A DNA stretch of 64,000 nt from a virus. Both the position numbers and the translations under genes were made by a program. The stretch lies in the UHGV virus genome UHGV-1550212. The stretch is one strand, 5' to 3'. Shown here piece after piece: positions 8,840 to 47,848 of this stretch; the stretch's first letter is position 1, and each line of letters opens with the position of its first letter. The notes beneath the pieces are model-generated. The model was not told the DNA's origin. It saw nothing but the letters and a program-made list of their open reading frames with translations, and made no database searches.

Positions 8840-9214
8840 TCATCGATTGTCGCCTGACCCATGCAATACACCTCGCAATTTTCGAGACTGCAGTTTCTGA
8901 ATGTTAAGCTGACAAATGTCAGTTAAGCTGTAGCCCAAATCATGTGCAAGAGTTGCAGCATACCACATGACATCGCTGAGCTCTTTTGCGATTTCCTTGC
9001 GAATGTCTTCATTATCAAAATCACCATTCTTGTCTCGAATGACTTTTTTGACTTTGTCTGCAACTTCGCCTGCTTCACCCGTTAAGCCAAGTGTTGGATA
9101 GATAATTGCAGCTGATTTAGGATATACTGCGCTATCAAGCGCAGCAGTCTGATATTCATCAATAGTTGAAATCCAAGTGTGGTCGATTACGCCGTGTTCA
9201 TCTCGTTTAAGCAT
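8840..9214 (-). CDS. mazG: MazG-like nucleoside triphosphate pyrophosphohydrolase
   Basis: LGLTGEAGEVADKVKK ... EIAKELSDVMWYAATLAHDLGYSLTD is the typical all-alpha NTP-PPase pattern. Confidence 0.75.
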   Translation of the reverse strand: MLKRDEHGVIDHTWISTIDEYQTAALDSAVYPKSAAIIYPTLGLTGEAGEVADKVKKVIRDKNGDFDNEDIRKEIAKELSDVMWYAATLAHDLGYSLTDICQLNIQKLQSRKLRGVLHGSGDNR

Positions 9215-9215
9215 A

Positions 9216-9707
9216 TCATTTACGTTTTTGTTTGACTCTTAATCGTTTTTGCATAAATGCTCTTGTAGCTTCACCAAAAGCCATCTCGTCTCGTTCGCCA
9301 CCACAAAGCTTTGCAAGCTTATTGAATGTGTCTTGGTCAATCATTGTGTACGTTGAGTTGTTGACCACATGCAATGCAAACTGAATCAGCGGTGCGCCTG
9401 GCTGCAAGCAGAATGGCTCTTTACCTGCATTGTACACTGCAAGATGAATCTCGCCATGATAGTCTGAATCTACAAACTCACTTGTTTTGATGATAAGATG
9501 ATTTCGTGAAATGCCCGACTTATTGTAGGCAATCAATGCATGACCGGCAGGCACAAGTGCTTTGATGCCAGATGGAATTGCAATGCCCTCACCAGGTTGC
9601 AGCATTGTTTGCACAAAATCATTGGGTATGCAAAAGTCCCATGCGCCAGATTCTGCTGTTGACTTAAAAGGACTTTCTACATTTCTGCATTTTGCAAAGA
9701 ATAACAT
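9216..9707 (-). CDS. dut: dUTP diphosphatase (dUTPase)
   Basis: dUTPase-like motifs SGAWDF, VDSDYHGEI, LIQFAL and C-terminal GGERDEMAFGEATRAF. Confidence 0.7.
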   Translation of the reverse strand: MLFFAKCRNVESPFKSTAESGAWDFCIPNDFVQTMLQPGEGIAIPSGIKALVPAGHALIAYNKSGISRNHLIIKTSEFVDSDYHGEIHLAVYNAGKEPFCLQPGAPLIQFALHVVNNSTYTMIDQDTFNKLAKLCGGERDEMAFGEATRAFMQKRLRVKQKRK

Positions 9708-10095: not shown

Positions 10096-11601
10096 TTACA
10101 ATTTGATTGCGCCTCTACGAGCAAGCTCTTCTTCAATCAATCGAACATGATTGTTAGCATACCAAAATTGCAATTTTTTGTGATAATTGCGAACGTTGCC
10201 AAGCTGTTCTTGAGTTTCTTTATACATTGAAGGCTCTCTGTTGTCATACAGACAATTGTTGACTGACACAAAGTAATTTGGGTCTGCTTTGTAATGCTCA
10301 ATTTCATCAGGATTTGTTAAACGTCTAATAAAGTTGTCTGGTGAAATATTCGCCGAGCGCATACTTGACGGATACAATGAGTTTGCGTCAACACAGACAA
10401 CCATACGAGCCCAATGGTTAAATGGTTGCTTAACAAAGCCGCCCTCAAATGAATGTACTACATTCTCTGGGCCACCTTGAGCACATACAACTTTGCCGCC
10501 ATATTTGTTGTATAAGTATGTCATCATGACGCCCTCAGATTGCTTAACTGGTCCTTGGCAGTGATTCATGTCAATATTTGTCATATTTGACAATGACATC
10601 ACATTTGATATCAAGTCAGTTTTTGCAGCAATCATTGCATTGACCATAGTATCGACAGCATTGTATGCAATGAATGTGCATGGATGATACAAATACAGCT
10701 CTTTAAGTGTGCAATCATAGGGCAACTTACCTACGCCGAACATACGATGTGCAATGTAGTCAAGTCGCAATGATTCCTTTTGCCACACTGAATAGTCGTA
10801 TGTGTCCATGAGCTGCATGTAGTCATCAATGTACTTGTGATATGGCATACCATTGCCCCAGACAGTTCTGCCAACTGGAGATGCCAATGCTAAATCAATA
10901 TTGTGCATTGCGCATCGATTTTTGACATAGATGTTATCGAAGTCATTGATGTTCCAGCCTGTCAATGCAGGAATGTTTTTGAAGAGCTTAGTCACCCAAA
11001 AATGCAACAATTCATGCTCATTTGCATGTTGAAAAATTTTGACAGTTGGATGTTCTTTCAAATACGCAGCAAAGCAATGTTGACCCATATACTCTTGAAT
11101 GATGCCATTGACAAACTCAAATGCATCATCCAATGTTGGGTTTTGTTTGCCGCAGCTTTTGCGCAAATCATCATCATTCAACAAGTCAACAGTAGTCTGA
11201 ATGACACAATTGCATTGTTCATCGCATGTACTTATTGCATTAATGGGCATTTCAGCTTTGTCAGGCTTTGGAAAGCCATTGCCAATTTCAGTCTCAATAT
11301 CGTAAAAGTACAACTTTGGTCTACGATAAGCAAACAATTCAGCTTTGTCAGCTTCAGGCAATTCAAATAAGAATTGCAGCAAGTCAAATTGATTGAATCG
11401 TTTTGCTGTGACTCGAGTCACTGGCAATTTACGCCAATCTTGAATATCTGCATATTGAGGCTCTACGTGGTCTGATATTTGCCACACTGGAAATTGATAT
11501 GGCTGTTCACAGACTGGGTATGTTTTGATGTCAATGCCACCTTGCTCATTAACATATGAGACTTCAATGCCATGTGACAAATATGCTACGTCAACAATCA
11601 T
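10096..11601 (-). CDS. family B DNA polymerase, N-terminal part (3'-5' exonuclease domain and motif A)
   Basis: Exo I FYDIETE, Exo II NINDFD, Exo III YNAVDT, polymerase motif A DANSLYPS; stops ~100 aa after motif A; own promoter at 11630-11658. Confidence 0.85.
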   Translation of the reverse strand: MIVDVAYLSHGIEVSYVNEQGGIDIKTYPVCEQPYQFPVWQISDHVEPQYADIQDWRKLPVTRVTAKRFNQFDLLQFLFELPEADKAELFAYRRPKLYFYDIETEIGNGFPKPDKAEMPINAISTCDEQCNCVIQTTVDLLNDDDLRKSCGKQNPTLDDAFEFVNGIIQEYMGQHCFAAYLKEHPTVKIFQHANEHELLHFWVTKLFKNIPALTGWNINDFDNIYVKNRCAMHNIDLALASPVGRTVWGNGMPYHKYIDDYMQLMDTYDYSVWQKESLRLDYIAHRMFGVGKLPYDCTLKELYLYHPCTFIAYNAVDTMVNAMIAAKTDLISNVMSLSNMTNIDMNHCQGPVKQSEGVMMTYLYNKYGGKVVCAQGGPENVVHSFEGGFVKQPFNHWARMVVCVDANSLYPSSMRSANISPDNFIRRLTNPDEIEHYKADPNYFVSVNNCLYDNREPSMYKETQEQLGNVRNYHKKLQFWYANNHVRLIEEELARRGAIKL

Positions 11602-29155: not shown

Positions 29156-30214
29156 TTACTGCTTCAAGCCTGTGAACAGTTCATACTTGAATGCAGGCCC
29201 TGCTGTGTAAGCCTCAAAGTAGAAGTCACCAATATTGATGCTTGCAATAGCGTCATCGACAGCTTTCTTGTAGCCTACACGTTCAATTGTCTGCTTATCG
29301 CATTTACGCCAATATGTGCTGTGCATCATAAGCGTGGGTGATGCAGCATAGTCTACTGCAAGCTGTTGTTTTGCAGTGTCAATGTGATGTTCATAGATGT
29401 GCACATCATTGCCAGTCCAAATGAACTCTCTTGCCACACAGTTAGTCAATGTTGCAACAATATGTGTAAGCAATGCATATGATGCGATATTGATGGGCAC
29501 ACCAAGACACATGTCACAGCTACGCTGAGTAAGCGCACAGTCAAGCCACATGCTTGGTACTTGAGCAGAATCAAGGCATTCTGCAGAACCATCATGCACA
29601 AGCATGCTATCATTAGCAATCTGAATTCGTTCTTCAAGAGTCATTGGCTGACAATTGAACTGAAACAGCATATGACATGGCGGCAATGCCATCTGAGACA
29701 TTTGCGCAGGATTCCATGCAGACACGACTTTGTAGCGGCCAGTTGGATTGATGACAATGTCTTTAATGCAAGTTGCAAGTTGGTCAAATCCACTGTCATT
29801 GAAGTTGCGCCACTGATACCCATAGATAGGTCCGCAATCACCATACTCAGGTTTGCTGAATTTTGTGTTGTGCAGTTCTGTGCACCAAGTGTCAAAGTCG
29901 ACATCTTCACCTGGATGCAGCTTTTGCCAATGACGATATGCATCCTGATGCCAGAACTTTGTAATGCCAAGCGTGTCAAGCGTTTTGACATTAGTGTCAC
30001 CTGACATAAACCACAGAAGTTCTCCAATGACGCCTTTGACAAACATTCTCTTGGATGTCAACAGTGGAAAGCCTTTACGCAAATCAAATCGCATTGATTC
30101 TACAAACAATGACTTTGTGCGAGGCATGTTTTCACGAGCAGGTTCCTTAAATCTGCCATGCTCAATAACATTATTAAGTACTCTCAAGTACTCAGTGTCG
30201 TGTTTGATATTCAT
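29156..30214 (-). CDS. thyA: thymidylate synthase (ThyA family, dUMP-specific type)
   Basis: ThyA blocks GELLWFMSGDTN, GPIYGYQWR, SAWNPAQMSQMALPPCH, QRSCDMCLGVPINIASYALL (Asn retained), WTGNDVHIY; ~60-aa C-terminal extension. Confidence 0.85.
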   Translation of the reverse strand: MNIKHDTEYLRVLNNVIEHGRFKEPARENMPRTKSLFVESMRFDLRKGFPLLTSKRMFVKGVIGELLWFMSGDTNVKTLDTLGITKFWHQDAYRHWQKLHPGEDVDFDTWCTELHNTKFSKPEYGDCGPIYGYQWRNFNDSGFDQLATCIKDIVINPTGRYKVVSAWNPAQMSQMALPPCHMLFQFNCQPMTLEERIQIANDSMLVHDGSAECLDSAQVPSMWLDCALTQRSCDMCLGVPINIASYALLTHIVATLTNCVAREFIWTGNDVHIYEHHIDTAKQQLAVDYAASPTLMMHSTYWRKCDKQTIERVGYKKAVDDAIASINIGDFYFEAYTAGPAFKYELFTGLKQ

Positions 30215-30875
30215 GAATGGGATGTTTATGAGTGTCTAATGATATGTCTGAGAATTCATATGCATACTTTGATATTGCAACACCATTTGCGTCTTCAAAT
30301 GCTTCTGTAAAGTTGCTGTCAATCCATCGTTTGACAGACTTAACTCCGCCTAAATGACATGCTGCAAGCAATGATGCTTCGGTTATTATAAATGCGCTAT
30401 CATTGTATGTCGCTTTACGCCCAATTGCGTCATAGCAATTGTAGTGCTGCAGCAATTCTTGTTGACGTTCAAGTAGCATATGCTGTGCCGCAATCTGCTT
30501 TGTAGAATCTTTGGCAATTTCTTGCAGTGACCAAGTCAATCCTTTGTATCGTACCAAGTCATCATGAGCAATCTTTGTTAGCTGCCATCGCCCTGTTGCG
30601 CCAAATCGATTTGTGATATGCCAACGATTACGAGATTCAAGATAGCCCAGCTTGTCTAAGTATTCTGCAAAGCTGCAAGTTTCTGGTTCAGTGACGTCTA
30701 ACAAGACGTGTACATTTGACAAATTTGCGACTGGCGCATATGTGACATGTTTTGTTGCAGTGCAATCACATAATGTCGGCCATGCAATGATAAAAGCAAC
30801 ACCAATTTTGATGAGCGATTCACATAATCTTATCATTTGTTTGAAATTAGTGAAGAGCACTTGCAGGCAGCTCAA
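30192..30875 (-). CDS. membrane-anchored lytic transglycosylase-like (SLT domain) protein
   Basis: YLESRNRWHITNRFGATGRWQL resembles the SLT motif ES..N..A.S..GA.GLMQ; N-terminal hydrophobic anchor. Confidence 0.5.
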   Translation of the reverse strand: MSCLQVLFTNFKQMIRLCESLIKIGVAFIIAWPTLCDCTATKHVTYAPVANLSNVHVLLDVTEPETCSFAEYLDKLGYLESRNRWHITNRFGATGRWQLTKIAHDDLVRYKGLTWSLQEIAKDSTKQIAAQHMLLERQQELLQHYNCYDAIGRKATYNDSAFIITEASLLAACHLGGVKSVKRWIDSNFTEAFEDANGVAISKYAYEFSDISLDTHKHPIHEYQTRH

Positions 30876-30901
30876 TCTCCTGACAGTACACTGTCATGCA
30901 A

Positions 30902-32779
30902 TCAAAAGCCTGCAAAGAAATCAGCATCAGCAGCATCTTGCTGAGGTGTCGACTCTTGTTCAATCACAAATCGACTGTGCAACTTTTGATTATGTTTTAT
31001 GTATGGCATAATGCGCCGGATTGATTCGTCAATGACAAATGTTTCACACCAGTCATTTGCATGTCGAATGCCTCGACCAACTGACTGTACGAAGCTTTGA
31101 TAGCACTTGTTGCGATACCAGCTTTCGTGATTTGCAGCCTTTGTTTTTACTACGATATCACCAAGTGACTGCCAAGGTAATTTTGCAACAATTTGACATC
31201 TACAACGATTGTCTGGTAAGTCAACGCCTTCAGTAATGCTAAAGCCTACAAGTACGTAGTTAGTGCCATCAGCAAGCATTGCAAGTTTATTTTGTTTGTC
31301 TTCAGCATTGACATATGTCAGCATTCTGCGTTTGTGCTTGCTGTTGTTGATGATATAGTTTGCAATGTCTCGTGTTGATGTGTGTATGATACAGTTGCAG
31401 TCATGTGTATCAAGAATGCTGTCAATCTTCTCAACAAGTCGAGGCATATTTGCTGCTTTATTCTTGTAGCTCAATGACAACGCAGGTTTGCACAGTACAA
31501 TGGGCGATTTGCTAAAATCCCAATCAGGCTCCATGTAGAATGCTACATAGTTTTTGATGCCATTGAGCGTAGCAAATGTATCAATGTCACCAATTGTCGC
31601 TGACATCCACAATTGTGCATGCGTAGCATCACTATGATGCACCAGTGTATTTGCAAGAAGCTCATCATTGACACATTTGAATTGCAAGCTGTTTGTTGCA
31701 GCATCAAGTACTACAAGCATGTCACCAGGTGATTGTTCAGTTGCATCAAGCATTGTAATGATTGAATATGACAACGTATCACAGCTGGCAACAAAGCGAA
31801 TGAACGCTTTCTCAAATTGACCAAGCATTTTGCCTGAATCCTGAAGTTCACGTAGCTTTTCATATGCAGTATGCAAAAAGTCTACAAGTTCTGACAACTG
31901 CTGTGCAAGCACTCTTGCTTCTGCTCGCATTGTTGCAATGTCATATTGTGTTGTTGCAAGCTTAATGACTGCTTTGACTTGTGCAAACACATTGTTGCGA
32001 AGTTCTACATATTTGTTCTGATTTTCAAGAGTCATGATACCTGCAATCAGTGACTCGGCCTTTGTGCAATTCTGAATGAATCGAGGACCAATTGACGTGT
32101 CAAGAAAGCCTGACAAAATGTCATCAATCTTATGGCACTCATCGAATATCGTCAATTCACGAGGCCCAAACAAGTTTTTGACGCAATTAACTTGTATCAA
32201 CCAGTACGCATAGTTAAGCACTGTGCAATTTGCTGCGGCAGCCTTTTGACGAGTCTGCAAATATGCGCATTTAGGTCCACATGGCAATGCAAGAGCTTTC
32301 TTTGATGACAACCCGTCTTGTTGGCATTTGCCCATACTGAATGGCAGACCATTGACATGACAAATGTAATTGTCTCGACCTTTGAGCATTACACAACTTC
32401 TGAATGCTGAAGTAGTTGTGTCTGCTTTAGCATTGTTGTCGTACAAATATTGTTGAATGAACTTGTCATACTGGTCTTGCAGCAGTTTATCAGAAGTCAG
32501 CACATACGACTTGAAGAATGTTGCGCAAAACATCGCAACCACAGATTTTCCCGTTCCAGTCGCTCCCTGCAATATGACATGTTGCCCATTTGCAATTGCT
32601 CGAATAATGTCGATGATTAGATGACGCTGAGTTGCATCAAAACGCGCTTGGTCCCACTTGCATGTCTTTGATTGCGCAAGATATGCTGAGAATTTATCAA
32701 TATGTGCTACAATAAGCTCATCAAGTTCTTGCTGAGATTGCTCTTCTGTCTTATGTTCTGCTGGTGTTAGTCTACCCAT
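30902..32779 (-). CDS. Rad3/XPD/DinG-like SF2 DNA helicase (Fe-S type)
   Basis: Walker A GATGTGKS, DECH box, four-Cys cluster between motifs (CHVNG...C...C...C), motif VI QSVGRGIRH; preceded by promoter and conserved leader element. Confidence 0.75.
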   Translation of the reverse strand: MGRLTPAEHKTEEQSQQELDELIVAHIDKFSAYLAQSKTCKWDQARFDATQRHLIIDIIRAIANGQHVILQGATGTGKSVVAMFCATFFKSYVLTSDKLLQDQYDKFIQQYLYDNNAKADTTTSAFRSCVMLKGRDNYICHVNGLPFSMGKCQQDGLSSKKALALPCGPKCAYLQTRQKAAAANCTVLNYAYWLIQVNCVKNLFGPRELTIFDECHKIDDILSGFLDTSIGPRFIQNCTKAESLIAGIMTLENQNKYVELRNNVFAQVKAVIKLATTQYDIATMRAEARVLAQQLSELVDFLHTAYEKLRELQDSGKMLGQFEKAFIRFVASCDTLSYSIITMLDATEQSPGDMLVVLDAATNSLQFKCVNDELLANTLVHHSDATHAQLWMSATIGDIDTFATLNGIKNYVAFYMEPDWDFSKSPIVLCKPALSLSYKNKAANMPRLVEKIDSILDTHDCNCIIHTSTRDIANYIINNSKHKRRMLTYVNAEDKQNKLAMLADGTNYVLVGFSITEGVDLPDNRCRCQIVAKLPWQSLGDIVVKTKAANHESWYRNKCYQSFVQSVGRGIRHANDWCETFVIDESIRRIMPYIKHNQKLHSRFVIEQESTPQQDAADADFFAGF

Positions 32780-32827
32780 TCTAAATGAGATTTAGATTAT
32801 GTTCGAATATATGAGAACATATATTAT
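32779..32827 (-). promoter_or_regulatory. conserved structured leader element, copy 1
   Basis: ~48-bp element with two inverted repeats (ATGTTC-N10-GAACAT and CTAAAT-CTC-ATTTAG) ending at the ATG of the Rad3/DinG-like helicase. Confidence 0.5.
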
Positions 32828-32837
32828 TTGTAAAAAT

Positions 32838-32866
32838 ATAATACTACAATCAGCATACATTTGCAC
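32838..32866 (-). promoter_or_regulatory. sigma70-like promoter (GTGCAA-N17-TATTAT)
   Basis: Upstream of the Rad3/DinG-like helicase; leader contains the conserved element. Confidence 0.45.
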
Positions 32867-33018
32867 TTTGACATAACTGATTGATACTCAATCAGTTATG
32901 AGTTTATAAAAGTTTTCAAAAGTAGGGTGTTGTTGTTTGAGTAGAGTGTTGCTGATTCTGTCAGCTGTCTTGTTTGCGTTATCGATTGCTTGCAAACTGT
33001 CAGCTGTCATAGAACATC

Positions 33019-33056
33019 ACAAAAGCAAGCAGACTACAATTGCAGTCTGCTTGCTT
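33019..33056 (-). terminator. intrinsic terminator
   Basis: 13-bp stem AAGCAAGCAGACT/AGTCTGCTTGCTT, then UUUUG; near-identical palindrome recurs at 49383-49410. Confidence 0.55.
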
Positions 33057-33077
33057 TGACATAGTTGTAATGTGAGT

Positions 33078-33434
33078 CTACTTGCGCATAAACAATGCAG
33101 CAAGCCAATTCACTGGCTTGTCAATAAGCTGCTTCCACATAGTCCAATTGTACATGCCATGCGCAAACATTGTAAGAGCAAACAACAGCATGCACATTGA
33201 TACAAGCCAATCAGCAAATGGCATATTGCCCCATCGAATGTACTCGAAAATGCCAACTTTAACAAGCTGAGCAAACAAAATGAGCATTACAGCCATTGCA
33301 AGTCGCATCCAGACTACATATTGCTGAGTCTTATCTACAAACTTTGCAATCAATGCTGGCACAAAGTACATAATGTACGCAAACAGCAACAAGCAAAAGC
33401 CTGCATACAGCAGATTAGAAATAAAAGCTCCCAT
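33078..33434 (-). CDS. multi-pass membrane protein (holin-like?)
   Basis: 118 aa, 3-4 hydrophobic helices; terminator at 33019-33056. Confidence 0.5.
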   Translation of the reverse strand: MGAFISNLLYAGFCLLLFAYIMYFVPALIAKFVDKTQQYVVWMRLAMAVMLILFAQLVKVGIFEYIRWGNMPFADWLVSMCMLLFALTMFAHGMYNWTMWKQLIDKPVNWLAALFMRK

Positions 33435-33437
33435 ATT

Positions 33438-34319
33438 TTATCGTTTGAATTTGATGAAGTGTTCAGCATCAAGGCCCTCAAATATGTACGGGTCAAGAGT
33501 TTCCCAGAAGTTTGAGTATGTCGTTGTCTTTGCAATACTTGTCTGCTTTGACAAGTTCATGTTTGGATAGCCAAGCATTGCATAGTGTCGCTCATATATG
33601 TGCATTGACGTTGCATTATGCATATAAGCGCCAAGCTTAAGACCAAGTTCATTTGCGACAAGTTCTTGCAACAAAGTGAATGCAAACTGGTCGTTACAGA
33701 AGCCCCAAATGACATCATTGCTTCGCATATATGTTGTCAAGTACAGCTTATCACCACGAACATTGAAAACAAGATTCAATGTGCACGGCATATCTTTGCC
33801 AGTGTAGTTTGCATATTGCGGCTCATAAATGCTAATAACTGCTCGTCTTGTGCATTCATGATTTCGCAAACGTTCAATGACATCTGCAATCTGCTTGTGC
33901 CAAATTGCGCCATACTGTGAATTGACATTGACGCCATCATCACTGAACTGCTTCCAACGAGGCAAATAACGTTCAATGCATTCAACTGCAGGATTGGCTG
34001 TCATATACCATGCAAATTCTGCAGCAGCATTGAGCTTTTTCCATGGTCGTACATCAATCTTGATTTGTCGCTGTGAAGGGTCCTGAATAACTACAGACAC
34101 ATTCAGCAATTCTTTTGTTCGAGTCACTGTTTGTGCATTGTTGCCCTTTGATTCTACAAACTCACCTCTACAATGAAGTTCATACAAAATTGAGCGAAAT
34201 GCTTCTGTTGCAGTGTTTTCAACGATTGTCGTCTGTTGATAGCATAAATTTGACGACAATGCTTCAGCATCATTGTACTTTATGCTGTCATTGTCATAAG
34301 GTGAATTTTTTGTGTGCAT
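33438..34319 (-). CDS. ThyA-family pyrimidine hydroxymethylase/methylase, cytosine-specific type (dCMP hydroxymethylase-like)
   Basis: ThyA-like blocks EFAWYMTANP, YGAIWHKQ, TRRAVISIYEP, DMPCT (catalytic Cys), YMRSNDVIWGFCNDQFAF where the ThyA Asn aligns with Asp; start trimmed to 34319 to avoid a 116-nt overlap. Confidence 0.55.
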   Translation of the reverse strand: MHTKNSPYDNDSIKYNDAEALSSNLCYQQTTIVENTATEAFRSILYELHCRGEFVESKGNNAQTVTRTKELLNVSVVIQDPSQRQIKIDVRPWKKLNAAAEFAWYMTANPAVECIERYLPRWKQFSDDGVNVNSQYGAIWHKQIADVIERLRNHECTRRAVISIYEPQYANYTGKDMPCTLNLVFNVRGDKLYLTTYMRSNDVIWGFCNDQFAFTLLQELVANELGLKLGAYMHNATSMHIYERHYAMLGYPNMNLSKQTSIAKTTTYSNFWETLDPYIFEGLDAEHFIKFKR

Positions 34320-34344: not shown

Positions 34345-35439
34345 TCATACAACGATAGTATCTCGTTTGCAATCTGTTTTGTCAAATATTGAACAACAAT
34401 ACGATGCAGATTGTTCTTTGATTTCAAGAGCTTCATCATTATCAAGTGATGAAATGCCATCTATGTATGCTTTTGCATTGCCAGCAATGTCATCATTTGT
34501 TAACAACGCTGCACGACGTTCAGTGCCAAAGAAGCCAAAGCACAATTGATGTTGCAGTGCTTCACGAGAAGTCTTGTCATCAAACTCTGATTTCATGTGT
34601 TGCATAAATTCGACAATATCATCAATGTCGCATTGAGTAAAGTCAATGCACAATTTATGCATGTACTTGAATCGTTTGTAGTCTGTTGCAAGAATTTCTG
34701 GGTGCACAATGAACAACGTCTTTTTGCTGTCTATTGGATTTGCAATGACTGATGCTTGAACATAATCGACAAGCATACCAGATTCACGAAGTTGCTCAAT
34801 TGTTTTGCCAAACACATGCCCAAGCGTGTCATCAAACCACTTCAAGTATGCTTCACTGTCTTCATCTTTTGACGCGCCAACAATGTAAATCTCATTGACT
34901 CCAAGTGCTTTGAGACGAGTATCAGACAACATAGTATTCAATTGATGCTGCACGTACAGCATTGGGCTGCTATGCAAAACCGTTTTAACAATCTCACAAG
35001 CAATGTCCATATATGCATAGTCAAGCTTTGCAGATTTTGACACATACACTGCACGTTGCTGCAATGGCTCAATTGCCGAGCATGTAGTTACAAAGTTGCC
35101 AACACATTCTGCTACTGCAATGTCATGCAAGTCATCTGCAATGTACACAATACTTGACAAGTCATCAAATGTTTGAACAAGTTGCTGAAGCTTTGTTTTG
35201 TAATTGCAGAGCATCAATGACTTGATGTTGCAATTACTTAGCATTGTCTTGATGAGTCGTTGACCTGCTTCAGTGCTGTCACCAGAAATGACATGCACAT
35301 CGCAGTCAAACCAGTTCAGCATGTCAATTGCATGCCGAACACCATATTGCATTTGTTTTGCAAACTTACCAGATTCATTGAACAGCATTTCACCTGACAT
35401 AATGCCGTCAAAGTCACATACGATTTGAAGTCTGTCCAT
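34345..35439 (-). CDS. HAD-superfamily (KdsC-like) sugar-phosphate phosphatase domain protein with unknown C-terminal domain
   Basis: IVCDFDGIMSGEMLFNESGKF (DxDG motif I), VHVISGDS, YIADDLHDIAV (motif IV), resembling KdsC/YrbI-type phosphatases. Confidence 0.5.
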   Translation of the reverse strand: MDRLQIVCDFDGIMSGEMLFNESGKFAKQMQYGVRHAIDMLNWFDCDVHVISGDSTEAGQRLIKTMLSNCNIKSLMLCNYKTKLQQLVQTFDDLSSIVYIADDLHDIAVAECVGNFVTTCSAIEPLQQRAVYVSKSAKLDYAYMDIACEIVKTVLHSSPMLYVQHQLNTMLSDTRLKALGVNEIYIVGASKDEDSEAYLKWFDDTLGHVFGKTIEQLRESGMLVDYVQASVIANPIDSKKTLFIVHPEILATDYKRFKYMHKLCIDFTQCDIDDIVEFMQHMKSEFDDKTSREALQHQLCFGFFGTERRAALLTNDDIAGNAKAYIDGISSLDNDEALEIKEQSASYCCSIFDKTDCKRDTIVV

Positions 35440-39818: not shown

Positions 39819-40155
39819 GCATTTTGATGATTGCATCTATCACAGTTTCACTGAGCAAGTAGTAGACAACGCTTATCAGCAATGATATCAGTACTGCAGC
39901 TGTGATAAATTGCAACGCATTCACAATTGCACGCACAAATGTTATCTGCGTGTTGTATGCAAGCACTATGCAGCATAGCACAATAATGACACACCAGACT
40001 ACAATTGCATATGCAGGCATCAATGAATTTGTCCATATGCAGTACAATACAGTAATTAGCATCAAAAATGCTATTGCTCTGATAACTGACACAATGATGT
40101 CTATGTAAGGCTTCATTGCACGCAAATGAACTCTTGGTTTATGTTGCTTCATCAT
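39808..40155 (-). CDS. multi-pass membrane protein
   Basis: 115 aa, highly hydrophobic. Confidence 0.5.
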   Translation of the reverse strand: MMKQHKPRVHLRAMKPYIDIIVSVIRAIAFLMLITVLYCIWTNSLMPAYAIVVWCVIIVLCCIVLAYNTQITFVRAIVNALQFITAAVLISLLISVVYYLLSETVIDAIIKMLAK

Positions 40156-41390
40156 GACTTTATGTACAATTCTGCAAGTTGTCTGGTGTACAGTCGTGGA
40201 TTATGATATGCTTTCCAATACGCAGTAGACTTTATTGCAGCAAGAATTTCATCATAATGTTTGACTGCTTCTGCTACAACTTCATCAAGCACGCTCAAAT
40301 CTTCTACACTGACAAGCAACCATTTTTCTACAATATCAATGAACTCCTGATTGCAATTGAAGCCATACTTGTAGTTGCAAGTATCAAGTACAAGTGGAAT
40401 GCAATCATTTGTCAATGCTTCAAAAAATCTACGAAGACTGAAACAATTCTCATCATATGATGGAATGCTCAATGTAAACTTGGCAGTCTTGATGAGTTGC
40501 AAATACTCTTCGTATGGAATCAGAGGACCATTGTGCTTCCATTGATTATTGTGTCGTCTTGTCGTGTACTTGAACAAAAACTTTGAATTGTCAAGTTCAC
40601 AAAGATGGTCCATGCGTAAAATGTAGTTATAGCGGTCTCTTCTGTCAGGCCAACTGTCAGTCATCGCAAACACAAAGTCTCTTTGCTTGTCACATTTTGC
40701 TGACATACCTCTATGCTGACACATGCAATACCAATATTGCTGCGATGGGCTGAACTCAAACTTTGAATGATGCTCACTTCCATCTTTGCATTGCTGAACA
40801 TAAATGTTGTCAGGCACAAAGTGAAAATAAAAGTGTCGAATTTGCAAGTCATTGATGTAGTCAAGCTTATGCTGCAATGGGTCTTCACAGAAATTGTAAC
40901 ACTGAATATGCTTTGCTGCTGCGTACTCAGCAACTATGAACGTGCACATCCATTGCAATGCAATATCTTCACTCTTCAAAAAGTTTACAAGCGGCTCATT
41001 TGGATGCGCTTTGCATTCATTGAACATTTTGTACCACTTGCATTGCTCCATATCGTACTTTGATACTGTATTGCCATTAAAGAACGACACAGTGTCAATT
41101 TTGAATGCATCAAGTTGTTTATGCACAATGTCAAGTGCTTGTGCGTATGTGATTGTCTCATCAGACATTATCTGCGCAAACTTGATTGGATGCGCATGCA
41201 AATTTGCGATAGTGTCTGCCGACATTTTACGCTGTGTGTGATAATCGACATACAAAAACTGACACTTGTCTGTAAGCAATTCAAGCATTGCTACAGATTT
41301 CCATCGAATTGCTTGAAAGAAATTGAAGTGTGCAGTTTGAAAGATGAGATGCGTAGGTTTATCAGAATGAGTCAAAGTTTGCATGGACAA
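40152..41390 (-). CDS. putative glycosyltransferase-like protein (cassette copy A1)
   Basis: Paralog of 44432..45988 (shared EDPLQHKL, PSQQYWY, FTLSIPSYDENCFSLRRFFEAL...CIPLV); the last block resembles a GT-B C-terminal motif. Confidence 0.4.
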   Translation of the reverse strand: MSMQTLTHSDKPTHLIFQTAHFNFFQAIRWKSVAMLELLTDKCQFLYVDYHTQRKMSADTIANLHAHPIKFAQIMSDETITYAQALDIVHKQLDAFKIDTVSFFNGNTVSKYDMEQCKWYKMFNECKAHPNEPLVNFLKSEDIALQWMCTFIVAEYAAAKHIQCYNFCEDPLQHKLDYINDLQIRHFYFHFVPDNIYVQQCKDGSEHHSKFEFSPSQQYWYCMCQHRGMSAKCDKQRDFVFAMTDSWPDRRDRYNYILRMDHLCELDNSKFLFKYTTRRHNNQWKHNGPLIPYEEYLQLIKTAKFTLSIPSYDENCFSLRRFFEALTNDCIPLVLDTCNYKYGFNCNQEFIDIVEKWLLVSVEDLSVLDEVVAEAVKHYDEILAAIKSTAYWKAYHNPRLYTRQLAELYIKS

Positions 41391-42547
41391 ATGTCGCAGT
41401 TATGTTGATGTTTGTGTTTATTTATGAAGTCATATGTCACTGCAAAAAAGTGCTTTGCAATGTCATATCGAGTTTTCAAATATGCTGCTTGGCGTTCACA
41501 AAACGCTGCATAAATGTCTGGGTGTCGTTTGAATGCAGCAATGCGTTGCTGTACTTGTTCTGCAGAATGTACATATGACACTTTGCTCAAATATGCATCA
41601 TCTGCAAATAATCGTCTGTCTTTGTCAACTGCGCAATCAACAAAAGTTGCAATTCGTGCAACAATGGCTTCACCAACACGATTTGGCATCAACCCATATT
41701 GCTCATATTGTTGGTCACCGATAGCAATGTGCGCTGCTGCATATGACATTGCATATGGCACACTATAAAATGGCACACTAAAATCAAATGAGCAATTTGA
41801 CTGTAGTAGTTGCGTTTGTGCATCAGACAATCTACTTGTCAAGTTGCCTGTATGTTTGTGCTCACCAAGAAAACTTGAGCGACAACCTGAATCTACATAG
41901 TATCGAATGACTTTGTTTATGCGACTGTCAGATAGCATATGCCAATCTCTTGTAGCATATATCAAGTCTACTGTTTTTGCACCAATATGACGAGGCTCTA
42001 TCGCAACATTGCTGTATGTTGGCAGCATGAACAATGGCAGCCATTTGACATTGTTGAACACTGAATGTTCATTTGACAAATTCATGCACTGGCTAAGTTC
42101 AAGTACTGGCTCATCATACACGCCATGCAGTTCAACTCTGCCTGCATGCACAAAGTTGACACGCTTAAATGGAAATCGCATATCAGTGCAAACCGTCATT
42201 CTTGCTGCAGTAGACATTCGCCACATAGCATGCAGCTTAACAACTGCTTCGGCTTGAGGTCGAGGCAGCATATTTAGCAAATCAATCCAGCCACCCCACA
42301 AAATCCAAACATCATTTGAACAGATGTTGAATTGCAAACTCAATATGTCTTCTACTGTTGCAGCAATGATGTCATGCCCATTGATGCTTGCAAGGTGCTT
42401 TCGTTGATTTGCAATAAGAATGACTTGACTGAACGGAGACTCTGGAAATGACACAAGCGCCTTTGCAAACAACACGGGTTCTTGTGATACCAAGTTGTTT
42501 GAGTATGGGTCGATTATGCAATCAAGCTTGTGTATGAAAAGTCTCAT
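41372..42547 (-). CDS. hypothetical enzyme-like protein (cassette copy B1)
   Basis: Paralog of 45985..47151 (shared N-terminus LFI.K.D, TDxRF.F, L.PNR). Confidence 0.45.
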   Translation of the reverse strand: MRLFIHKLDCIIDPYSNNLVSQEPVLFAKALVSFPESPFSQVILIANQRKHLASINGHDIIAATVEDILSLQFNICSNDVWILWGGWIDLLNMLPRPQAEAVVKLHAMWRMSTAARMTVCTDMRFPFKRVNFVHAGRVELHGVYDEPVLELSQCMNLSNEHSVFNNVKWLPLFMLPTYSNVAIEPRHIGAKTVDLIYATRDWHMLSDSRINKVIRYYVDSGCRSSFLGEHKHTGNLTSRLSDAQTQLLQSNCSFDFSVPFYSVPYAMSYAAAHIAIGDQQYEQYGLMPNRVGEAIVARIATFVDCAVDKDRRLFADDAYLSKVSYVHSAEQVQQRIAAFKRHPDIYAAFCERQAAYLKTRYDIAKHFFAVTYDFINKHKHQHNCDICPCKL

Positions 42548-43601: not shown

Positions 43602-43817
43602 TCATTTTGCACAGTCTGAGGCAATCAAATCTTTGTCAAAGCATTCATCTATAATGTCTTCAATAAGATACGCTTCGACATTGTTAAGCTTCAAGATATC
43701 TACGAGTTTTGCTTTGATATCGCAAGCTAATGCAGATTCAACTGTATGCAATATGACTGATGATGCGACATGCTTGTCTGTCATCATTTGTAATTGCTGT
43801 GGTGTTACTCTACTCAT
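43602..43817 (-). CDS. hypothetical small protein
   Basis: 71-aa ORF with 4-nt overlap to the upstream kinase gene. Confidence 0.35.
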   Translation of the reverse strand: MSRVTPQQLQMMTDKHVASSVILHTVESALACDIKAKLVDILKLNNVEAYLIEDIIDECFDKDLIASDCAK

Positions 43818-44386
43818 GCGCCAAGTTCAGCTAAGCATTTTAGCACATTGTCTTGCAGACTTACATTGTTGTCGATTTCGACAATATGCAATGGTGAGTT
43901 CTTTCGCCACTCATCATATGCAGCAATCATTTTATTGCGTTTGTTGACATCAATGTTGACATCGCCACAAAAGTTATCAACAAAATCTGGTGCAACATCA
44001 CGCTTGCATAAGAACACTATATGCGGCAATGTTGCAAGCTTCTTTTCATATGCTTCAAAGAATGCTTGATGCTTATCAGTGTGCAACTCTTTGTAAAGCG
44101 TTGTGTTAAAGATTTGATGTGTGATGAACGAACGGTCACACAAAAATGTTGCTTTGCCAAAGCCTTTAGAGTCATTTCCAATGAACTCTAAGAAGAAGCG
44201 CCAATCATAAAAGAACGCTTCATTGAGGTCCCAAGGTTCGGGCATTGGGTCATCACCTGACTCATGCTGTTGCCACCAAGAACGAGATGTTCGTTTGCAA
44301 TTGATAAACCATGGGCGCCACTTCATCAATTCATTGATGAGTGTTGTTTTGCCTGAAGCTTCTACACCTTCAAATATCGCTATCAT
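43814..44386 (-). CDS. P-loop deoxynucleoside monophosphate kinase-like protein
   Basis: Walker A IFEGVEASGKTT and a CDRSF (DRY/DRS-like) motif as in thymidylate/dNMP kinases. Confidence 0.6.
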   Translation of the reverse strand: MIAIFEGVEASGKTTLINELMKWRPWFINCKRTSRSWWQQHESGDDPMPEPWDLNEAFFYDWRFFLEFIGNDSKGFGKATFLCDRSFITHQIFNTTLYKELHTDKHQAFFEAYEKKLATLPHIVFLCKRDVAPDFVDNFCGDVNIDVNKRNKMIAAYDEWRKNSPLHIVEIDNNVSLQDNVLKCLAELGA

Positions 44387-44411: not shown

Positions 44412-44440
44412 ACAGTACAACGTAGTTATGCTCATTGCAC
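44412..44440 (-). promoter_or_regulatory. weak sigma70-like promoter (GTGCAA-N17-TACTGT)
   Basis: Upstream of the dNMP kinase gene; -10 is a poor match. Confidence 0.3.
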
Positions 44441-45988
44441 TTCTACGAATGGCTCTTTCAACACAAAGCTGTCACCATTGCAACATGCGGCTGAGCCATC
44501 GTCTGCATCAAGTGCACATGACATATCAGACTTGCAGAACTTGCAATATAAACATGACCATGCATGACTCATGAAGTTGTTTGCTTCACAAATTGCGCAA
44601 CGCTCATGCATAAGTGCATTGTCGCAATTATCACAAGACTTCTTGATTGGCACAGTTTTGTTGATGTATGCAAGATGCAATGCAATATCATACACAAAGT
44701 CACCCGTATATTGCTGAATGAAATCAGTATGCCACAACTCTTTTAACAATTGTGCATGTCTATATGGCTGAACAATGTCTTCAAGATGCTGCAAGTCATC
44801 ATCGCTAACCATGAGCTTCTTAATGACAAATTGTTTGAACTGTGGCCATCTGTCAAACATATAGAGTTTGCATGAGTTGTGCACAAGTGGAACACAGCCA
44901 AGCACAATGCTTTCACAGAATCTACGCAAACTAAAACAGTTTGCATCATATGACGGCACAATCAATGTGAATCTGCTATGCTTGATGAGTTCAAGGTATG
45001 TGTCATATGGCAGTAGCTTATCTGACAATTGCTGTTGTTGTTTGTCTCTGCTGAAAAATCTGAACACAATACCCTTGTCAATTGCATCTTGATTGTGCAG
45101 ATGCATGAGTTTGTTGATGAGTTCTGTGCGTTCAGTTTTGTCTCGCCAAGTATTCGTCAATGCAAATGCAAAATTCAGTCGCTTGTCATCAAACGTCGCT
45201 TCAATATCATTCCAAGTTTTGTCATGCAAATACCAGTATTGCTGTGATGGGCACCATCCATAATATGCAATAGCATCTTGTTCTGCTGTAACGTCATACA
45301 CATATGCAGAATTGTATTCAAGGCCAAGCCTTTTGACGTTGTTGCAGTCATGAAAGTACCAATGCTGCACTTTGAATATCTTTGATGCACTGAATGCGCT
45401 TTCATATGGCCCTGAATAGCGATAGTCAATGTAATTGAGCTTGTGCTGCAATGGGTCTTCGACAAAGTTGTTTATGACTGTGCCTTGTTGTTTGCCCTTA
45501 GTCTTGCGAGCATTCAATGCAACATTGTATTGCATGATGACTGACAGCATCTCATACACTACATACATGAGTGCTTTGTAGACTGAGCCTGCTGCGTCAA
45601 TTAGTGGCAAATCACGTTTGACTGATGTAGCGCCAAATGTCTTGCAATATGCAGAAAATGTGTCAAGTTCTGCTTGCTGAAATGAATTGCATGCACCATT
45701 GAATATGTTGAATGTTGCAATGTAGCTCATATTGCAAGATGTCATTGACATATCAAGACGCTTCATAATGTCGACAATGCGACATTGAGCAAAATCTGAC
45801 ACATCAACATATTTGACATGATGGCCTGATGTAGTCAAGCCATCTGCGACATCTTTCATCTGTGGCACAAAGCCTACAACAATGAATAAGTCATCTTTGT
45901 TTGCTCGTTCAAACATTGCTGCACTTTTCCAAGTCAATGAATTGAAAAAGTCTATGTAGCCAGTTTGAGTGATTATATGCGTTCTCAT
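44432..45988 (-). CDS. putative glycosyltransferase-like protein (cassette copy A2) with Cys-rich C-terminal extension
   Basis: Paralog of 40152..41390 (EDPLQHKLNY, PSQQYWY, FTLIVPSYDANCFSLRRFCESIVLGCVPLV); extra CDNCDN...C cluster. Confidence 0.4.
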   Translation of the reverse strand: MRTHIITQTGYIDFFNSLTWKSAAMFERANKDDLFIVVGFVPQMKDVADGLTTSGHHVKYVDVSDFAQCRIVDIMKRLDMSMTSCNMSYIATFNIFNGACNSFQQAELDTFSAYCKTFGATSVKRDLPLIDAAGSVYKALMYVVYEMLSVIMQYNVALNARKTKGKQQGTVINNFVEDPLQHKLNYIDYRYSGPYESAFSASKIFKVQHWYFHDCNNVKRLGLEYNSAYVYDVTAEQDAIAYYGWCPSQQYWYLHDKTWNDIEATFDDKRLNFAFALTNTWRDKTERTELINKLMHLHNQDAIDKGIVFRFFSRDKQQQQLSDKLLPYDTYLELIKHSRFTLIVPSYDANCFSLRRFCESIVLGCVPLVHNSCKLYMFDRWPQFKQFVIKKLMVSDDDLQHLEDIVQPYRHAQLLKELWHTDFIQQYTGDFVYDIALHLAYINKTVPIKKSCDNCDNALMHERCAICEANNFMSHAWSCLYCKFCKSDMSCALDADDGSAACCNGDSFVLKEPFVEVQ

Positions 45989-47151
45989 GATTTGAATGTT
46001 TGTTCAAGAATTGTATAGCACTGTGCAATCATTGTTGCAAGAGCTTTTTGCTGAAGCTGTTTGCAATTTGAAGATATTGTGTATTGCTGACGCTCAGTTG
46101 TAGTACTGCTTAATGTCGCAAATTGCAGGTACTCATCTTCTGACATGATATCAGCAAACAATGCAGACAATTCATAATCTACAATGACATTTGAGCAGTT
46201 TGCAAGTACGCCTTCAACCCATCGATTTGGCAACAAACATGCTTGCACATACAATGAATCGCCGACTACAAGATTGCACATTGACTGCGACATTACATAC
46301 GTCATCATGTCATATGGCACTTTGTACTTAAGTGTGAAGTTTTGTGCTGCTGACTTAATTGCTTGCAGAATTGTGTCATCAAGATATGATGTTATAAGGC
46401 AAGTATTGTATGCCTGCATAATGTAACGCTCAATCACGCTTCTACGATACTCGTCAAGATATGTGAAACCTGCACAACTTGCACAACATGCATATTGCTG
46501 CTTTATGTCAGCAAAGCTACACACATGCGCTTCAATTGCATTTTGCATTGTTGCTTGTCGTTTGAGCAATCTTGGCTCTTTAATGCATTGAAGCTTCAAT
46601 GCATTGACTGCTGCAATGATTTGCAATGGCACAAACACGCATTGAGACTCATCAAGCCAAGCATACTTGAGATTTTTATGTTGACACAGATGCGTAATGT
46701 TGTCTTTTTGTGATTCTAAGTACTCTTTGTAATTATGCAATCGCTTTGTCAATGTGCACTCTTTGTCAAAATCAAATCGCAAATCAGTTGTTAGTGTAAA
46801 TTTGCGAACATTTGACAAGCACCATGCTTTGAATGCATTCCACAGAACATCTTGCTGAAATTCTGAACAATGTTCAAGAGCAGCCTTTGAGCCCTGCCAG
46901 AATATTGCGCAATCATCTGATTTTGCACACTTCAGCATATCTTGCCATGCATGTATGCTATTGATGATATGCACTTTATTATGCACAAGCTCATTAAGTG
47001 TTGCATGCTTGTTCTCAGGGTCGCCAAACACGTATACTGTATCAAACATTGTTTGAACAAACCCTGCAAATGCAATGGGTTCTGTATGTTTAAGATGCTG
47101 TATGTCTGAACGCACACATGTGTCAAATTTCAAAATGAAGAGTTTGCTCAT
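45985..47151 (-). CDS. hypothetical enzyme-like protein (cassette copy B2)
   Basis: Paralog of 41372..42547; promoter at 47181-47210. Confidence 0.45.
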   Translation of the reverse strand: MSKLFILKFDTCVRSDIQHLKHTEPIAFAGFVQTMFDTVYVFGDPENKHATLNELVHNKVHIINSIHAWQDMLKCAKSDDCAIFWQGSKAALEHCSEFQQDVLWNAFKAWCLSNVRKFTLTTDLRFDFDKECTLTKRLHNYKEYLESQKDNITHLCQHKNLKYAWLDESQCVFVPLQIIAAVNALKLQCIKEPRLLKRQATMQNAIEAHVCSFADIKQQYACCASCAGFTYLDEYRRSVIERYIMQAYNTCLITSYLDDTILQAIKSAAQNFTLKYKVPYDMMTYVMSQSMCNLVVGDSLYVQACLLPNRWVEGVLANCSNVIVDYELSALFADIMSEDEYLQFATLSSTTTERQQYTISSNCKQLQQKALATMIAQCYTILEQTFKS

Positions 47152-47848
47152 ATGCTTTGCAATTATCTATTACATGTTGATATTGTACTTCATCTATGAT
47201 GTGATTTGCAATGACACCATATGACGTGTCATACATTGGCATCTTCTCATATGACAATGCTGCGTCAAGATTGCATATCACATAATTGCAATGCACAATG
47301 TCATCTACATTGTCACTAACTGCTACGATATTGACGCAATTTGCAAGAAATGCATCATCAAAGTCTACTTGATTGCATGCAACCTCATAATCTGCAGCAC
47401 TTCTTGGGTACCAATATAACTCAATGCCGGCACTACTAAGTAGTCGCAAGCCATCTATGTGATGATACAAGTCAACAAAATGCACTTGCTTAACGCCTGC
47501 TTGCAAAATAAGCTTTGCGCAATCAATGCATGGACTATATGTTACATATAGCACTGCGTCATTTGCAGTCGCATTGCCATATTTGCACAGCTTCATCAAT
47601 GCATTTGATTCTGCATGCAAAACTTCTTTGTTGGTTTTGATGCCTGCTGATGTTGCATGTTCACAACAATTTGACATGCCAGTTGGCATGCCATTGTAGC
47701 CATCTGAAATTATGCAGCCATCTTTTACAAGCAATGCGCCGACTTTTGCTCGCTGAGCATGTGAATTTAATGACCAGAGCTCAGCCATTTTAAGATATAT
47801 GAGATTTCGTTGAAACCACTTTGTTTCAGACCAAGTTAGCCATTTCAT
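47123..47848 (-). CDS. dCMP deaminase (zinc-dependent cytidine/deoxycytidylate deaminase family)
   Basis: HAESNAL and YSPCIDCAKLI zinc-binding motifs; ~90-aa C-terminal extension. Confidence 0.8.
   Translation of the reverse strand: MKWLTWSETKWFQRNLIYLKMAELWSLNSHAQRAKVGALLVKDGCIISDGYNGMPTGMSNCCEHATSAGIKTNKEVLHAESNALMKLCKYGNATANDAVLYVTYSPCIDCAKLILQAGVKQVHFVDLYHHIDGLRLLSSAGIELYWYPRSAADYEVACNQVDFDDAFLANCVNIVAVSDNVDDIVHCNYVICNLDAALSYEKMPMYDTSYGVIANHIIDEVQYQHVIDNCKAYEQTLHFEI
47181..47210 (-). promoter_or_regulatory. sigma70-like promoter (TTGCAA-N18-TACAAT)
   Basis: Upstream of 45985..47151, inside the 3' end of the dCMP deaminase gene. Confidence 0.45.

Follow-up and report, generated by a model that had tools for sequence, protein, structure and literature searches.

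Bacteriophage T4, with its td gene and gene 42, offers the textbook arrangement of both enzyme types in one phage: two genes of the thymidylate synthase family, one coding for a protein with Asn and the other for a protein with Asp at position 177 (Escherichia coli ThyA numbering). A like pair is found in the UHGV virus genome UHGV-1550212, of which we analyzed one stretch of 64,000 nucleotides, here termed the window. Its gene A (29156..30214, minus strand, 352 amino acids (aa)) specifies a canonical thymidylate synthase ThyA (EC 2.1.1.45) that would convert deoxyuridylate (dUMP) to thymidylate (dTMP), and its gene B (33438..34319, minus strand, 293 aa) a protein of the thymidylate synthase fold that we predict to be a deoxycytidylate (dCMP) hydroxymethylase (EC 2.1.2.8), i.e., a 5-hydroxymethyl-dCMP (hmdCMP) synthase. 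The comparison draws on what was directly observed, namely family membership and fold, signature residues, the genes present and their conserved order, and we consider it probable that genes A and B divide pyrimidine C5 chemistry between them as td and gene 42 do in T4, with gene B acting as the dCMP hydroxymethylase. Since T4 carries such a pair, the combination is not new in kind, and the preliminary description of this DNA overstated the novelty of a phage with both genes.

Within the thymidylate synthase family, a handful of positions have been linked to the type of substrate and product. Replacement of Asn177 by Asp is the experimentally established switch of pyrimidine specificity that favors dCMP over dUMP (cited in PMC13326640, PMC8670742 and PMC5175136), and cytosine-modified metavirome contigs were best distinguished by positions 177 and 147 (PMC8670742). 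Replacement of Leu143 by Asp or Glu correlates with a hydroxymethyl rather than a methyl product, while Asn instead of Asp169 is the hallmark of the flavin-dependent 5-hydroxy-dCMP synthases: 5-hydroxydeoxycytidine was the product of all natural D169N variants that were assayed (PMC13326640). Ser167 in combination with Arg126' goes along with deoxyribo substrates, the respective residues of the CMP hydroxymethylase MilA being Ala176 and Lys133' (PMC5175136). In the T4 enzyme, the water molecules that are proposed to add to the methylene intermediate are bound by Ser94, Tyr96 and Asp145, Trp82 binds the p-aminobenzoic acid ring of folate, and Glu60 activates folate (PMC6400193).

Both open reading frames (ORFs) lie on the minus strand exactly at the positions given above, separated by a 3.2-kb gap with three genes that code for a 214-aa protein, a DinG-like helicase and a 118-aa hydrophobic protein. 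The spacing of about 3 kb and the motifs quoted in the preliminary description, namely PINIASY with its Asn and PPCH with the catalytic Cys for gene A, and MPCT, RS.DV and GFCNDQFAF for gene B, were all borne out, the motifs being embedded in LPPCH, QRSCD, GVPINIASY and DVHIY (gene A) or in KDMPCT, MRSNDV and GFCNDQFAF (gene B). The longest ORF of gene B extends to 34460 (340-aa form) and thereby runs into the upstream gene (end at 34345); its start was placed at the ATG at 34319, 25 nt past the stop codon of that gene, a start also used by a 98%-identical 293-aa database protein and fitting a 283-aa homologue of 72% identity. The two proteins are only about 19% identical across 249 aligned columns (BLASTP: 23.9 bits, E 0.005), thus representing ancient family members and not a recent duplication. 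A megablast search of the segment 29000..35500 against 50,697 phage records gave no match to near-DNA relatives; the phage is therefore not a sequenced isolate.

The assignment of gene A as a bona fide folate-dependent thymidylate synthase ThyA is well supported by its sequence. It matches Pfam PF00303 with an E value of 3.6e-76 and 256.3 bits (cut-off 24.3), the NCBIfam equivalog TIGR03284 (thym_sym) with 239.2 bits (cut-off 108.35), and thymidylate synthases in the PDB with E values down to 3.7e-55. Its signature reads E65, Y131, R160, L177, C180, H181, Q230, R231, S232, C233, D234, G238, N242, H272 and Y274, by which the residues Glu58, Tyr94, Arg126, Leu143, Cys146, His147, Gln165, Arg166, Ser167, Cys168, Asp169, Gly173, Asn177, His207 and Tyr209 of E. 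coli ThyA are kept in the alignment; the residue identities of the E. coli reference sequence agree with the list in PMC13326640. An exception is the position of E. coli Arg127, occupied by Tyr161, and the Trp80 region is ambiguous owing to an insertion. Gene A has insertions at about residues 84–106 and at about residues 190–223 (33 residues, in the hairpin after the catalytic strand). These peculiarities, the Tyr in place of Arg127 included, are common to a relative, a 362-aa homologue on contig L007 having the same Tyr, and identity to the ThyA proteins of sequenced phages reaches at most about 37%.

Gene B has the thymidylate synthase fold, yet is not a thymidylate synthase. Its 340-aa form matches PF00303 with an E value of 9.3e-24 and 84 bits (cut-off 24.3), but its matches to all eight NCBIfam thymidylate synthase equivalogs stay below cut-off (best 79.1 bits versus the required 174.55), and it has Asp210, Asp176 and Thr180 in place of the ThyA residues Asn177, Leu143 and His147. 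An AlphaFold model computed from 47 homologues (predicted local distance difference test 90.9, predicted template modeling score 0.88) was compared with solved structures using Foldseek, which retrieved the CMP hydroxymethylase MilA (E 1.3e-19, template modeling (TM) score 0.70), T4 dCMP hydroxymethylase (1B49, TM score 0.72 on the target), the flavin-dependent dCMP hydroxylase AfhB (9iqc/9iqu, E ~1e-16, TM scores 0.76–0.77) and also ordinary thymidylate synthases. In a sequence search of the PDB, MilA ranked first (E 1.4e-22), followed by N229D mutants of Lactobacillus casei thymidylate synthase. As MilA, AfhB, the T4 enzyme and ordinary thymidylate synthases all match, neither fold nor overall similarity identifies the gene B product. 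BLASTP scores were highest with the hydroxymethylase homologues of ViI-like (115 bits), SPO1-like (gp29; 104 bits) and M6-like (89 bits) type, and lower with the 5-methylcytosine (5mC)-type enzyme of PaMx74 (72 bits), RB69 gp48 (63.2 bits), PAU gp182 (62.0 bits), T4 gp42 (60.8 bits) and E. coli ThyA (55 bits). With the product type left unsettled by fold and BLASTP, the call was made on the signature residues.

For this purpose, gene B was compared with T4 gp42, RB69 gp48, T4-like gp42, SPO1-like gp29, M6-like and ViI-like dUMP hydroxymethylase homologues, and the PaMx74 enzyme, the latter being the 5mC-type comparator (in place of the Xp12 enzyme). The alignment table held 132 sequences, homologues as well as reference enzymes, of which 130 were validly aligned. 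Position 143 was read at the level of the motif (D-M-P-C), as one MAFFT run had columns 142 and 143 shifted while the other alignments agree, and the catalytic-Cys motifs of T4 and PaMx74 were read by eye. RB69 gp48 came out with Glu143, Asn169 and Asp177, thus reproducing the published residues and thereby validating the alignment.

The signature of gene B at the 18 tabulated active-site positions (E101, W122, S134, Y136, R158, R159, D176, C179, T180, M198, R199, S200, N201, D202, G206, D210, H240 and Y242) equals that of T4 gp42 (PDB 1B49/1B5E) at 17, the hydration residues included. In the segment corresponding to E. coli residues 165–177, gene B reads MRSNDVIWGFCND and T4 gp42 MRSNDVVFGFRND, with 11 of the 13 residues matching; RB69 gp48 has MRSQNCAVVMQLD, PAU gp182 MRSNNAVKTICFD and PaMx74 LRSSDVFVGLPYD. 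Asp210, located in GFCND, aligns with Asn177 of E. coli ThyA and Asp179 of T4 gp42, the position at which gene A has Asn, and Asp is found here in 125 of the 130 validly aligned sequences; it is this residue that makes the substrate of gene B probably of the cytosine type, as the preliminary description had proposed. Gene B retains the catalytic and nucleotide-binding residues (C179, R158, R159, R199, S200, H240 and Y242) as well as the folate-handling residues Glu101, Trp122 and Asp202 (Glu58/60, Trp80/82 and Asp169/171 in E. coli ThyA/T4 gp42), so that the loss of folate and nucleotide binding residues that would have spoken against that proposal is not seen. Ser134, Tyr136, Asp176 and Trp122 are the equivalents of T4 Ser94, Tyr96, Asp145 and Trp82, the first three being invariant in an alignment of 47 sequences. 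Because of Asp176 at the Leu143 position and Ser134, water addition to give a hydroxymethyl group is predicted rather than methylation. The preliminary description had left open whether thymidylate synthesis is accompanied by C5 hydroxymethylation or methylation; the separation of the two activities is supported, and the residues favor hydroxymethylation over methylation. The most coherent reading of the signature is thus hydroxymethyl-transfer chemistry on a cytosine deoxynucleotide, i.e., a predicted dCMP hydroxymethylase.

The likeness to T4 extends beyond the two family members. The window consists of genes running on the same strand and comes from a large phage whose replication functions resemble those of T4: a family-B DNA polymerase in two pieces, a gp32-like single-strand-binding protein, a UvsW-like helicase and a fused SbcD-SbcC protein (gp46/47-like), along with thioredoxin and the DinG-like helicase. 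Like T4, the phage has genes for DNA beta-glucosyltransferase (BGT) homologues, a dCMP deaminase, a pyrophosphatase and a kinase. The dCMP deaminase (47123..47848, minus strand) is an analogue of T4 cd (PF00383 E 6e-21, MafB19-deam E 5e-16, PHROG 174 E 1e-43). A MazG-like NTP pyrophosphohydrolase (8840..9214, minus strand; PF03819 E 8e-9, PHROG 229 E 1e-35) is a candidate dCTPase and as such may be a functional analogue of T4 gp56, and next to it lies a dUTPase/dCTP-deaminase-like gene (9216..9707, minus strand; PF00692 E 7e-11, PF22769 DCD E 3e-7, TIGR00576 E 2e-13). A P-loop nucleotide kinase-like protein (43814..44386, minus strand) is a candidate hmdCMP kinase, possibly a functional analogue of T4 gp1; it is 36% identical (E 3e-28) to the 'thymidylate kinase' of phage MA9V-2, and dTMP kinase models match it at the P-loop level only. 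The association of a thymidylate synthase homologue with an all-alpha pyrophosphohydrolase and a dCMP/MafB19-type deaminase forms a MetaGPA network on experimentally cytosine-modified metavirome contigs (PMC8670742). There are also differences to T4. The pyrophosphatase of the window is a small MazG protein that is not detectably gp56-like, a direct comparison with RB69 gp56 giving nothing significant, and the kinase is not gp1-like; for neither protein was a tie to T4/RB69 gp1, gp56 or RB69p045 found beyond the P-loop. Gene B carries a conserved C-terminal extension that gp42 lacks, the window has two BGT-like and two GT47-like genes as well as an adjacent KdsC-like fusion, and its lineage is PAU/MA9V-like rather than Straboviridae. 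As to the polymerase, its exonuclease and polymerase parts are encoded at 6510–7802 and 10096–11601, with four genes in between, among them the MazG and dUTPase-like genes. The SbcD-SbcC fusion (35804–39730, 1308 aa) joins the functions of T4 gp47 and gp46, combining an SbcD-like metallophosphoesterase N-terminus with an SbcC/Rad50-like ATPase coiled coil, and is kept in relatives (1310 and 1401 aa).

The four putative glycosyltransferase genes, all on the minus strand, form two tandem pairs, X1-Y1 and X2-Y2, that are paralogous pair to pair. X1 (41372..42547; PHROG 7922 beta-glucosyltransferase E 5e-8) is a homologue of T4 BGT and a candidate glycosyltransferase for DNA containing 5-hydroxymethylcytosine (hmC), and X2 (45985..47151) is its paralogue (24% identity, BLASTP E 1e-15) and a second BGT-like transferase. 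When a profile of three X sequences was searched against all PDB sequences, T4 BGT (1bgt) was the sole significant match (E 1.8e-5, BGT residues 97–313), and hhalign aligned the X family with T4 b-gt over 228 columns (94.4% probability, E 9.5e-8); X2 is a member of the X alignment that matches T4 BGT. The X-family motif CTDMRFPF aligns with FTDIRLPF in the Asp100 region of BGT, and T-D-x-R-x-P-F, G-D..Y and R-V-x-E are invariant in the X alignment; we take Asp100 to be the catalytic base of BGT, and Arg269 and Glu272 to be its residues for binding of uridine diphosphate. X1 and X2 are thus homologous to T4 DNA beta-glucosyltransferase, and sugar transfer to hmC DNA is predicted for them. Y1 (40152..41384, sharing 13 nt with the 3' end of X1) and its paralogue Y2 (44432..45988; 30% identity, BLASTP E 6e-48, 4-nt overlap with the 3' end of X2) are putative glycosyltransferases of GT47/exostosin-like type. 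Their Pfam matches (Y1: Exostosin_GT47 E 8.7e-5 and Glyco_trans_1_2 E 2e-4; Y2: Exostosin_GT47 E 5.6e-6) remain under the curated cut-offs, but sub-threshold GT47/exostosin matches were obtained with all four members of the family, including homologues beside an X gene in contig L007 and in contig L008; searches with the Y family gave no PDB sequence match and no hhalign match to BGT. No gene for an alpha-glucosyltransferase was found in the window.

Immediately upstream of gene B, a 364-aa HAD fusion protein is encoded (34345..35439, minus strand), in which a KdsC-like phosphatase is joined to an orphan C-terminal alpha/beta domain. The C-terminal 215 residues had no homologue outside their own cluster among 1.84e9 representative proteins, a word search yielding three relatives only, and in close relatives the fusion is always located immediately upstream of gene B. 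Its 'IYIVGA' Rossmann-like motif had raised the suspicion of a MilA/MilB-like pair, which found no support, the N-terminus being KdsC-like and the C-terminal domain without homologue. In arabinosyl-5-hydroxycytosine systems, preparation of the sugar donor is the task of a HAD phosphatase encoded beside the thymidylate synthase homologue, and by analogy the HAD fusion is a possible candidate for sugar-donor preparation.

Parts of this gene order are conserved. A metagenomic contig with a gene B homologue of 72% identity has the same succession of X, Y, a small gene, SbcCD, a 154-aa gene, the HAD fusion and gene B, followed by a 118-aa gene, a 75-aa gene, the helicase, a 209-aa gene and ThyA; a relative with 51% identity retains Y, SbcCD, the HAD fusion, gene B and the helicase. 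The closest cultured relative is Chryseobacterium phage MA9V-2 (218 kb), whose gene B homologue shows 44% identity. Here, a KdsC-like protein is encoded a few genes upstream, followed by the 'thymidylate kinase', the gene B homologue and the helicase, and a separate canonical ThyA is present as well. The MA9V-1/2 homologue (ORF88/MA9V2_146), annotated as 'thymidylate synthase', has the same signature as gene B (D143, T147, M165, D169 and D177) and the same neighbors, but is longer (447 aa) owing to its C-terminal region; a tblastn search of MA9V gave no homologue of the X- or Y-family transferases. DNA modification is not a topic of the MA9V papers, in which Sphingomonas phage PAU and Tenacibaculum phage PTm1 serve as the phages of comparison. 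The contexts of two more distant gene B homologues were those of other phage types and uninformative. In PAU (NC_019521, 10613–19258), gp182, a thymidylate synthase homologue of 235 aa, has Glu143, Asn169 and Asp177, but no equivalent of Glu58; it is flanked by the X-family BGT-like gp179 and gp180, followed by genes for a dTDP-glucose 4,6-dehydratase, a 3,5-epimerase and a glucose-1-phosphate thymidylyltransferase. This suggests that PAU may make 5-hydroxycytosine glycosylated with a dTDP-derived 6-deoxyhexose, of which we found no report. The PAU/MA9V-like group thus appears to hold both the 5-hydroxy type (Asn169, PAU) and the 5-hydroxymethyl type (Asp169, window and MA9V), as judged from the signatures, and since both occur in the group, the retained Asp202 of gene B is informative. 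In Bacteroides phage BF486P2 (53 kb), we came across two Asp177-type thymidylate synthase homologues (5165–5926 and 7998–8678), 2 kb apart and both annotated as dCMP hydroxymethyltransferase, one with unusual residues at the Glu58, Trp80 and Gly173 positions.

Several observations weigh against the assignment of gene B as a dCMP hydroxymethylase. In overall sequence, it is not closer to characterized dCMP hydroxymethylases than to enzymes of other product types, given 89–115 bits with the dUMP hydroxymethylases versus 60.8 bits with T4 gp42, to which it is about 25–27% identical; its scores with T4 gp42, the hydroxylase RB69 gp48 and PAU gp182 are equal, so that the call rests on signature residues and not on orthology. 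Its best match among solved structures is a CMP enzyme, MilA. The Leu143 rule is a correlation, and the 5mC-type PaMx74 enzyme has Asn at this position, not a hydrophobic residue. The roles of the kinase and MazG are assigned by analogy, the putative glycosyltransferase assignment of the Y family is based on sub-threshold Pfam matches, and, since BGT-like genes are found in PAU beside an enzyme of the Asn169 type, their presence alone is no proof of a hydroxymethyl acceptor. Gene B belongs to a separate clade in which no assayed member was identified, its assignment being one by signature. Its relatedness to SPO1 gp29 and the ViI-like and M6-like dUMP hydroxymethylases, which give the top BLASTP scores among the characterized types and share K-D-x-P-C, R-S-N-D, a similar length and C-terminal extensions with gene B, would be in line with gene B hydroxymethylating dUMP toward 5-hydroxymethyluracil-derived thymidine hypermodifications as in SPO1, ViI and M6, and a P-loop kinase within the transferase cluster would suit such a pathway. 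However, the enzymes of this type differ from gene B at exactly the positions that discriminate between U and C, with Asn at 147, 165 and 177 instead of the cytosine-type set Thr180, Met198 and Asp210, C-type residues are found in about 95% of the 120 homologues of gene B, and homologues of enzymes processing 5-hydroxymethyldeoxyuridine were not noticed; we regard this reading as very improbable. Even less credence, verging on none, is given to the idea that gene B is a CMP hydroxymethylase (MilA/BcmA type) of a small-molecule (nucleoside antibiotic-like) pathway unrelated to DNA. MilA, the enzyme from mildiomycin biosynthesis (PDB 5JNH/5B6D), is the best match by sequence and structure and, like gene B, has Asp at the Asn177 and Leu143 positions, but its ribo-preference residues Ala176 and Lys133' are replaced by Ser200 and Arg158 in gene B, as in dCMP/dUMP enzymes, which argues for a deoxyribo substrate. 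Moreover, MilA belongs to bacterial secondary metabolism, whereas gene B sits amid phage replication and nucleotide-metabolism genes, and DLP3 gp80, a dCMP enzyme, likewise has MilA as its top match.

Two further possibilities concern the chemistry at C5 of dCMP. According to one of them, gene B would be a dCMP methyltransferase of the Xp12 and PaMx74 type, the DNA then containing 5mC and the glycosyltransferases serving another purpose. The N177D exchange alone converts thymidylate synthase into a dCMP methylase, as cited in the literature, and a dCMP-deaminase-family gene and MazG are present in the window, as they are around 5mC-type thymidylate synthase homologues. The residues point elsewhere, however, as gene B has Asp at the Leu143 position and Ser134, like hydroxymethylases, and its KDMPCT and MRSNDVIWGFCND are T4-gp42-like, in contrast to RNVPCP and the ThyA-like LRSSDVFVGLPYD of PaMx74. 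Likewise, it scores 104–115 bits against hydroxymethylases and 72 against PaMx74, and T4 BGT homologues require a hydroxyl acceptor. In 5mC phages, dTTP is reportedly obtained by deamination of 5-methyl-dCTP, making a second thymidylate synthase unnecessary, so that the presence of a separate canonical ThyA fits better to the T4 layout. Taken together, the acidic residue at the Leu143 position, the retained T4 hydration residues, the highest similarity being to hydroxymethylases and the nearby T4 BGT homologues favor hydroxymethylation, and we consider methylation improbable. Similarly improbable is 5-hydroxylation of dCMP, chemistry outside the preliminary description, by a flavin-dependent synthase of the RB69 gp48 and HY126 AfhB type, with O-glycosides built directly on 5-hydroxycytosine. 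The enzymes of this type (RB69 gp48, DLP3 gp80, HY126 AfhB; 9IQU/9IQC) have the fold, Asp177, the acidic residue 143 and the association with DNA glycosyltransferases in common with gene B, the gene B model matches both AfhB structures, RB69 gp48 scores as high as T4 gp42, and the Asn169-signature enzyme of the related phage PAU is flanked by BGT-like genes. Yet the diagnostic D169N exchange, which goes with use of flavin and O2, is absent: of the 130 validly aligned sequences, 129 have Asp here (Asp202 in gene B) and RB69 gp48 alone has Asn; PAU gp182, when aligned with gene B, likewise shows Asn. Gene B also keeps Glu101, Trp122, Asp202, Gly206 and Tyr242, which are linked to the handling of folate in T4 dCMP hydroxymethylase and ThyA, whereas RB69 gp48 and PAU gp182 have lost several folate-handling residues. 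With Asp169 retained, 5-hydroxylation is disfavored.

With gene B as a dCMP hydroxymethylase, we infer a pathway, its substrates, products and order of steps alike, that would proceed as follows. The dCMP deaminase of the phage and its dUTPase-like enzyme would supply dUMP, which gene A would methylate to dTMP. On gene B, Cys179 would attack C6 of dCMP, Asp210 would protonate and orient the cytosine, and Glu101 would activate methylene-tetrahydrofolate; the exocyclic methylene intermediate would then be captured by water held on Ser134, Tyr136 and Asp176, without hydride transfer, to give hmdCMP. The MazG-type pyrophosphatase may lower dCTP and regenerate dCMP, while the phage P-loop kinase and the host nucleoside diphosphate kinase may convert hmdCMP to hmdCTP, for incorporation in place of dC by the phage family-B polymerase. 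By homology to T4 BGT, X1 and X2 would glycosylate hmC in DNA, with Y1 and Y2 perhaps extending the product, and glycosylated hmC would protect the DNA from host nucleases. A more far-reaching idea, which we put forward tentatively and consider rather unlikely, is that hmC made via gene B anchors a glycan not yet described on DNA, the pairs of BGT-like and GT47-like enzymes building a di- or oligosaccharide or two alternatives, and the KdsC-like fusion supplying an unusual donor, e.g., a 3-deoxy-ulosonic acid.

Some features of the window lie apart from these genes. Two paralogous DUF7487 genes (1777–2976 and 55801–56967; 42% identity over 400 aa) are found 53 kb apart near the ends of the window. 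The region 57701–58315 codes for a protein with a papain-like cysteine peptidase domain, and 62798–63799 for a lipoprotein-like protein with weak BNR/sialidase-like repeats. Across the whole 64 kb, no tRNA genes were found.

What remains new, then, is the lineage (PAU/MA9V-like large phages with apparently Bacteroidota hosts), the four transferases and the orphan HAD fusion, which together could mean an undescribed glycan on hmC. If so, this would be a new DNA hypermodification in Bacteroidota phages, and the gene B family would constitute a wide reservoir of hmC-based chemistry in the gut and the environment. The case also illustrates that three or four alignment positions (143, 169, 177 and 167/126) suffice to assign thymidylate synthase homologues to product classes. 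If gene B is indeed a dCMP hydroxymethylase, full replacement of cytosine by glycosylated hmC would not be limited to the T-even phages of enterobacteria, but would extend to a lineage of large-genome phages that has Sphingomonas phage PAU and Chryseobacterium phage MA9V as relatives. Such genomes would differ in sequencing, restriction digestion and CRISPR-based engineering; the finding would inform studies of host defense, and the window would offer candidate DNA glycosyltransferase tools.

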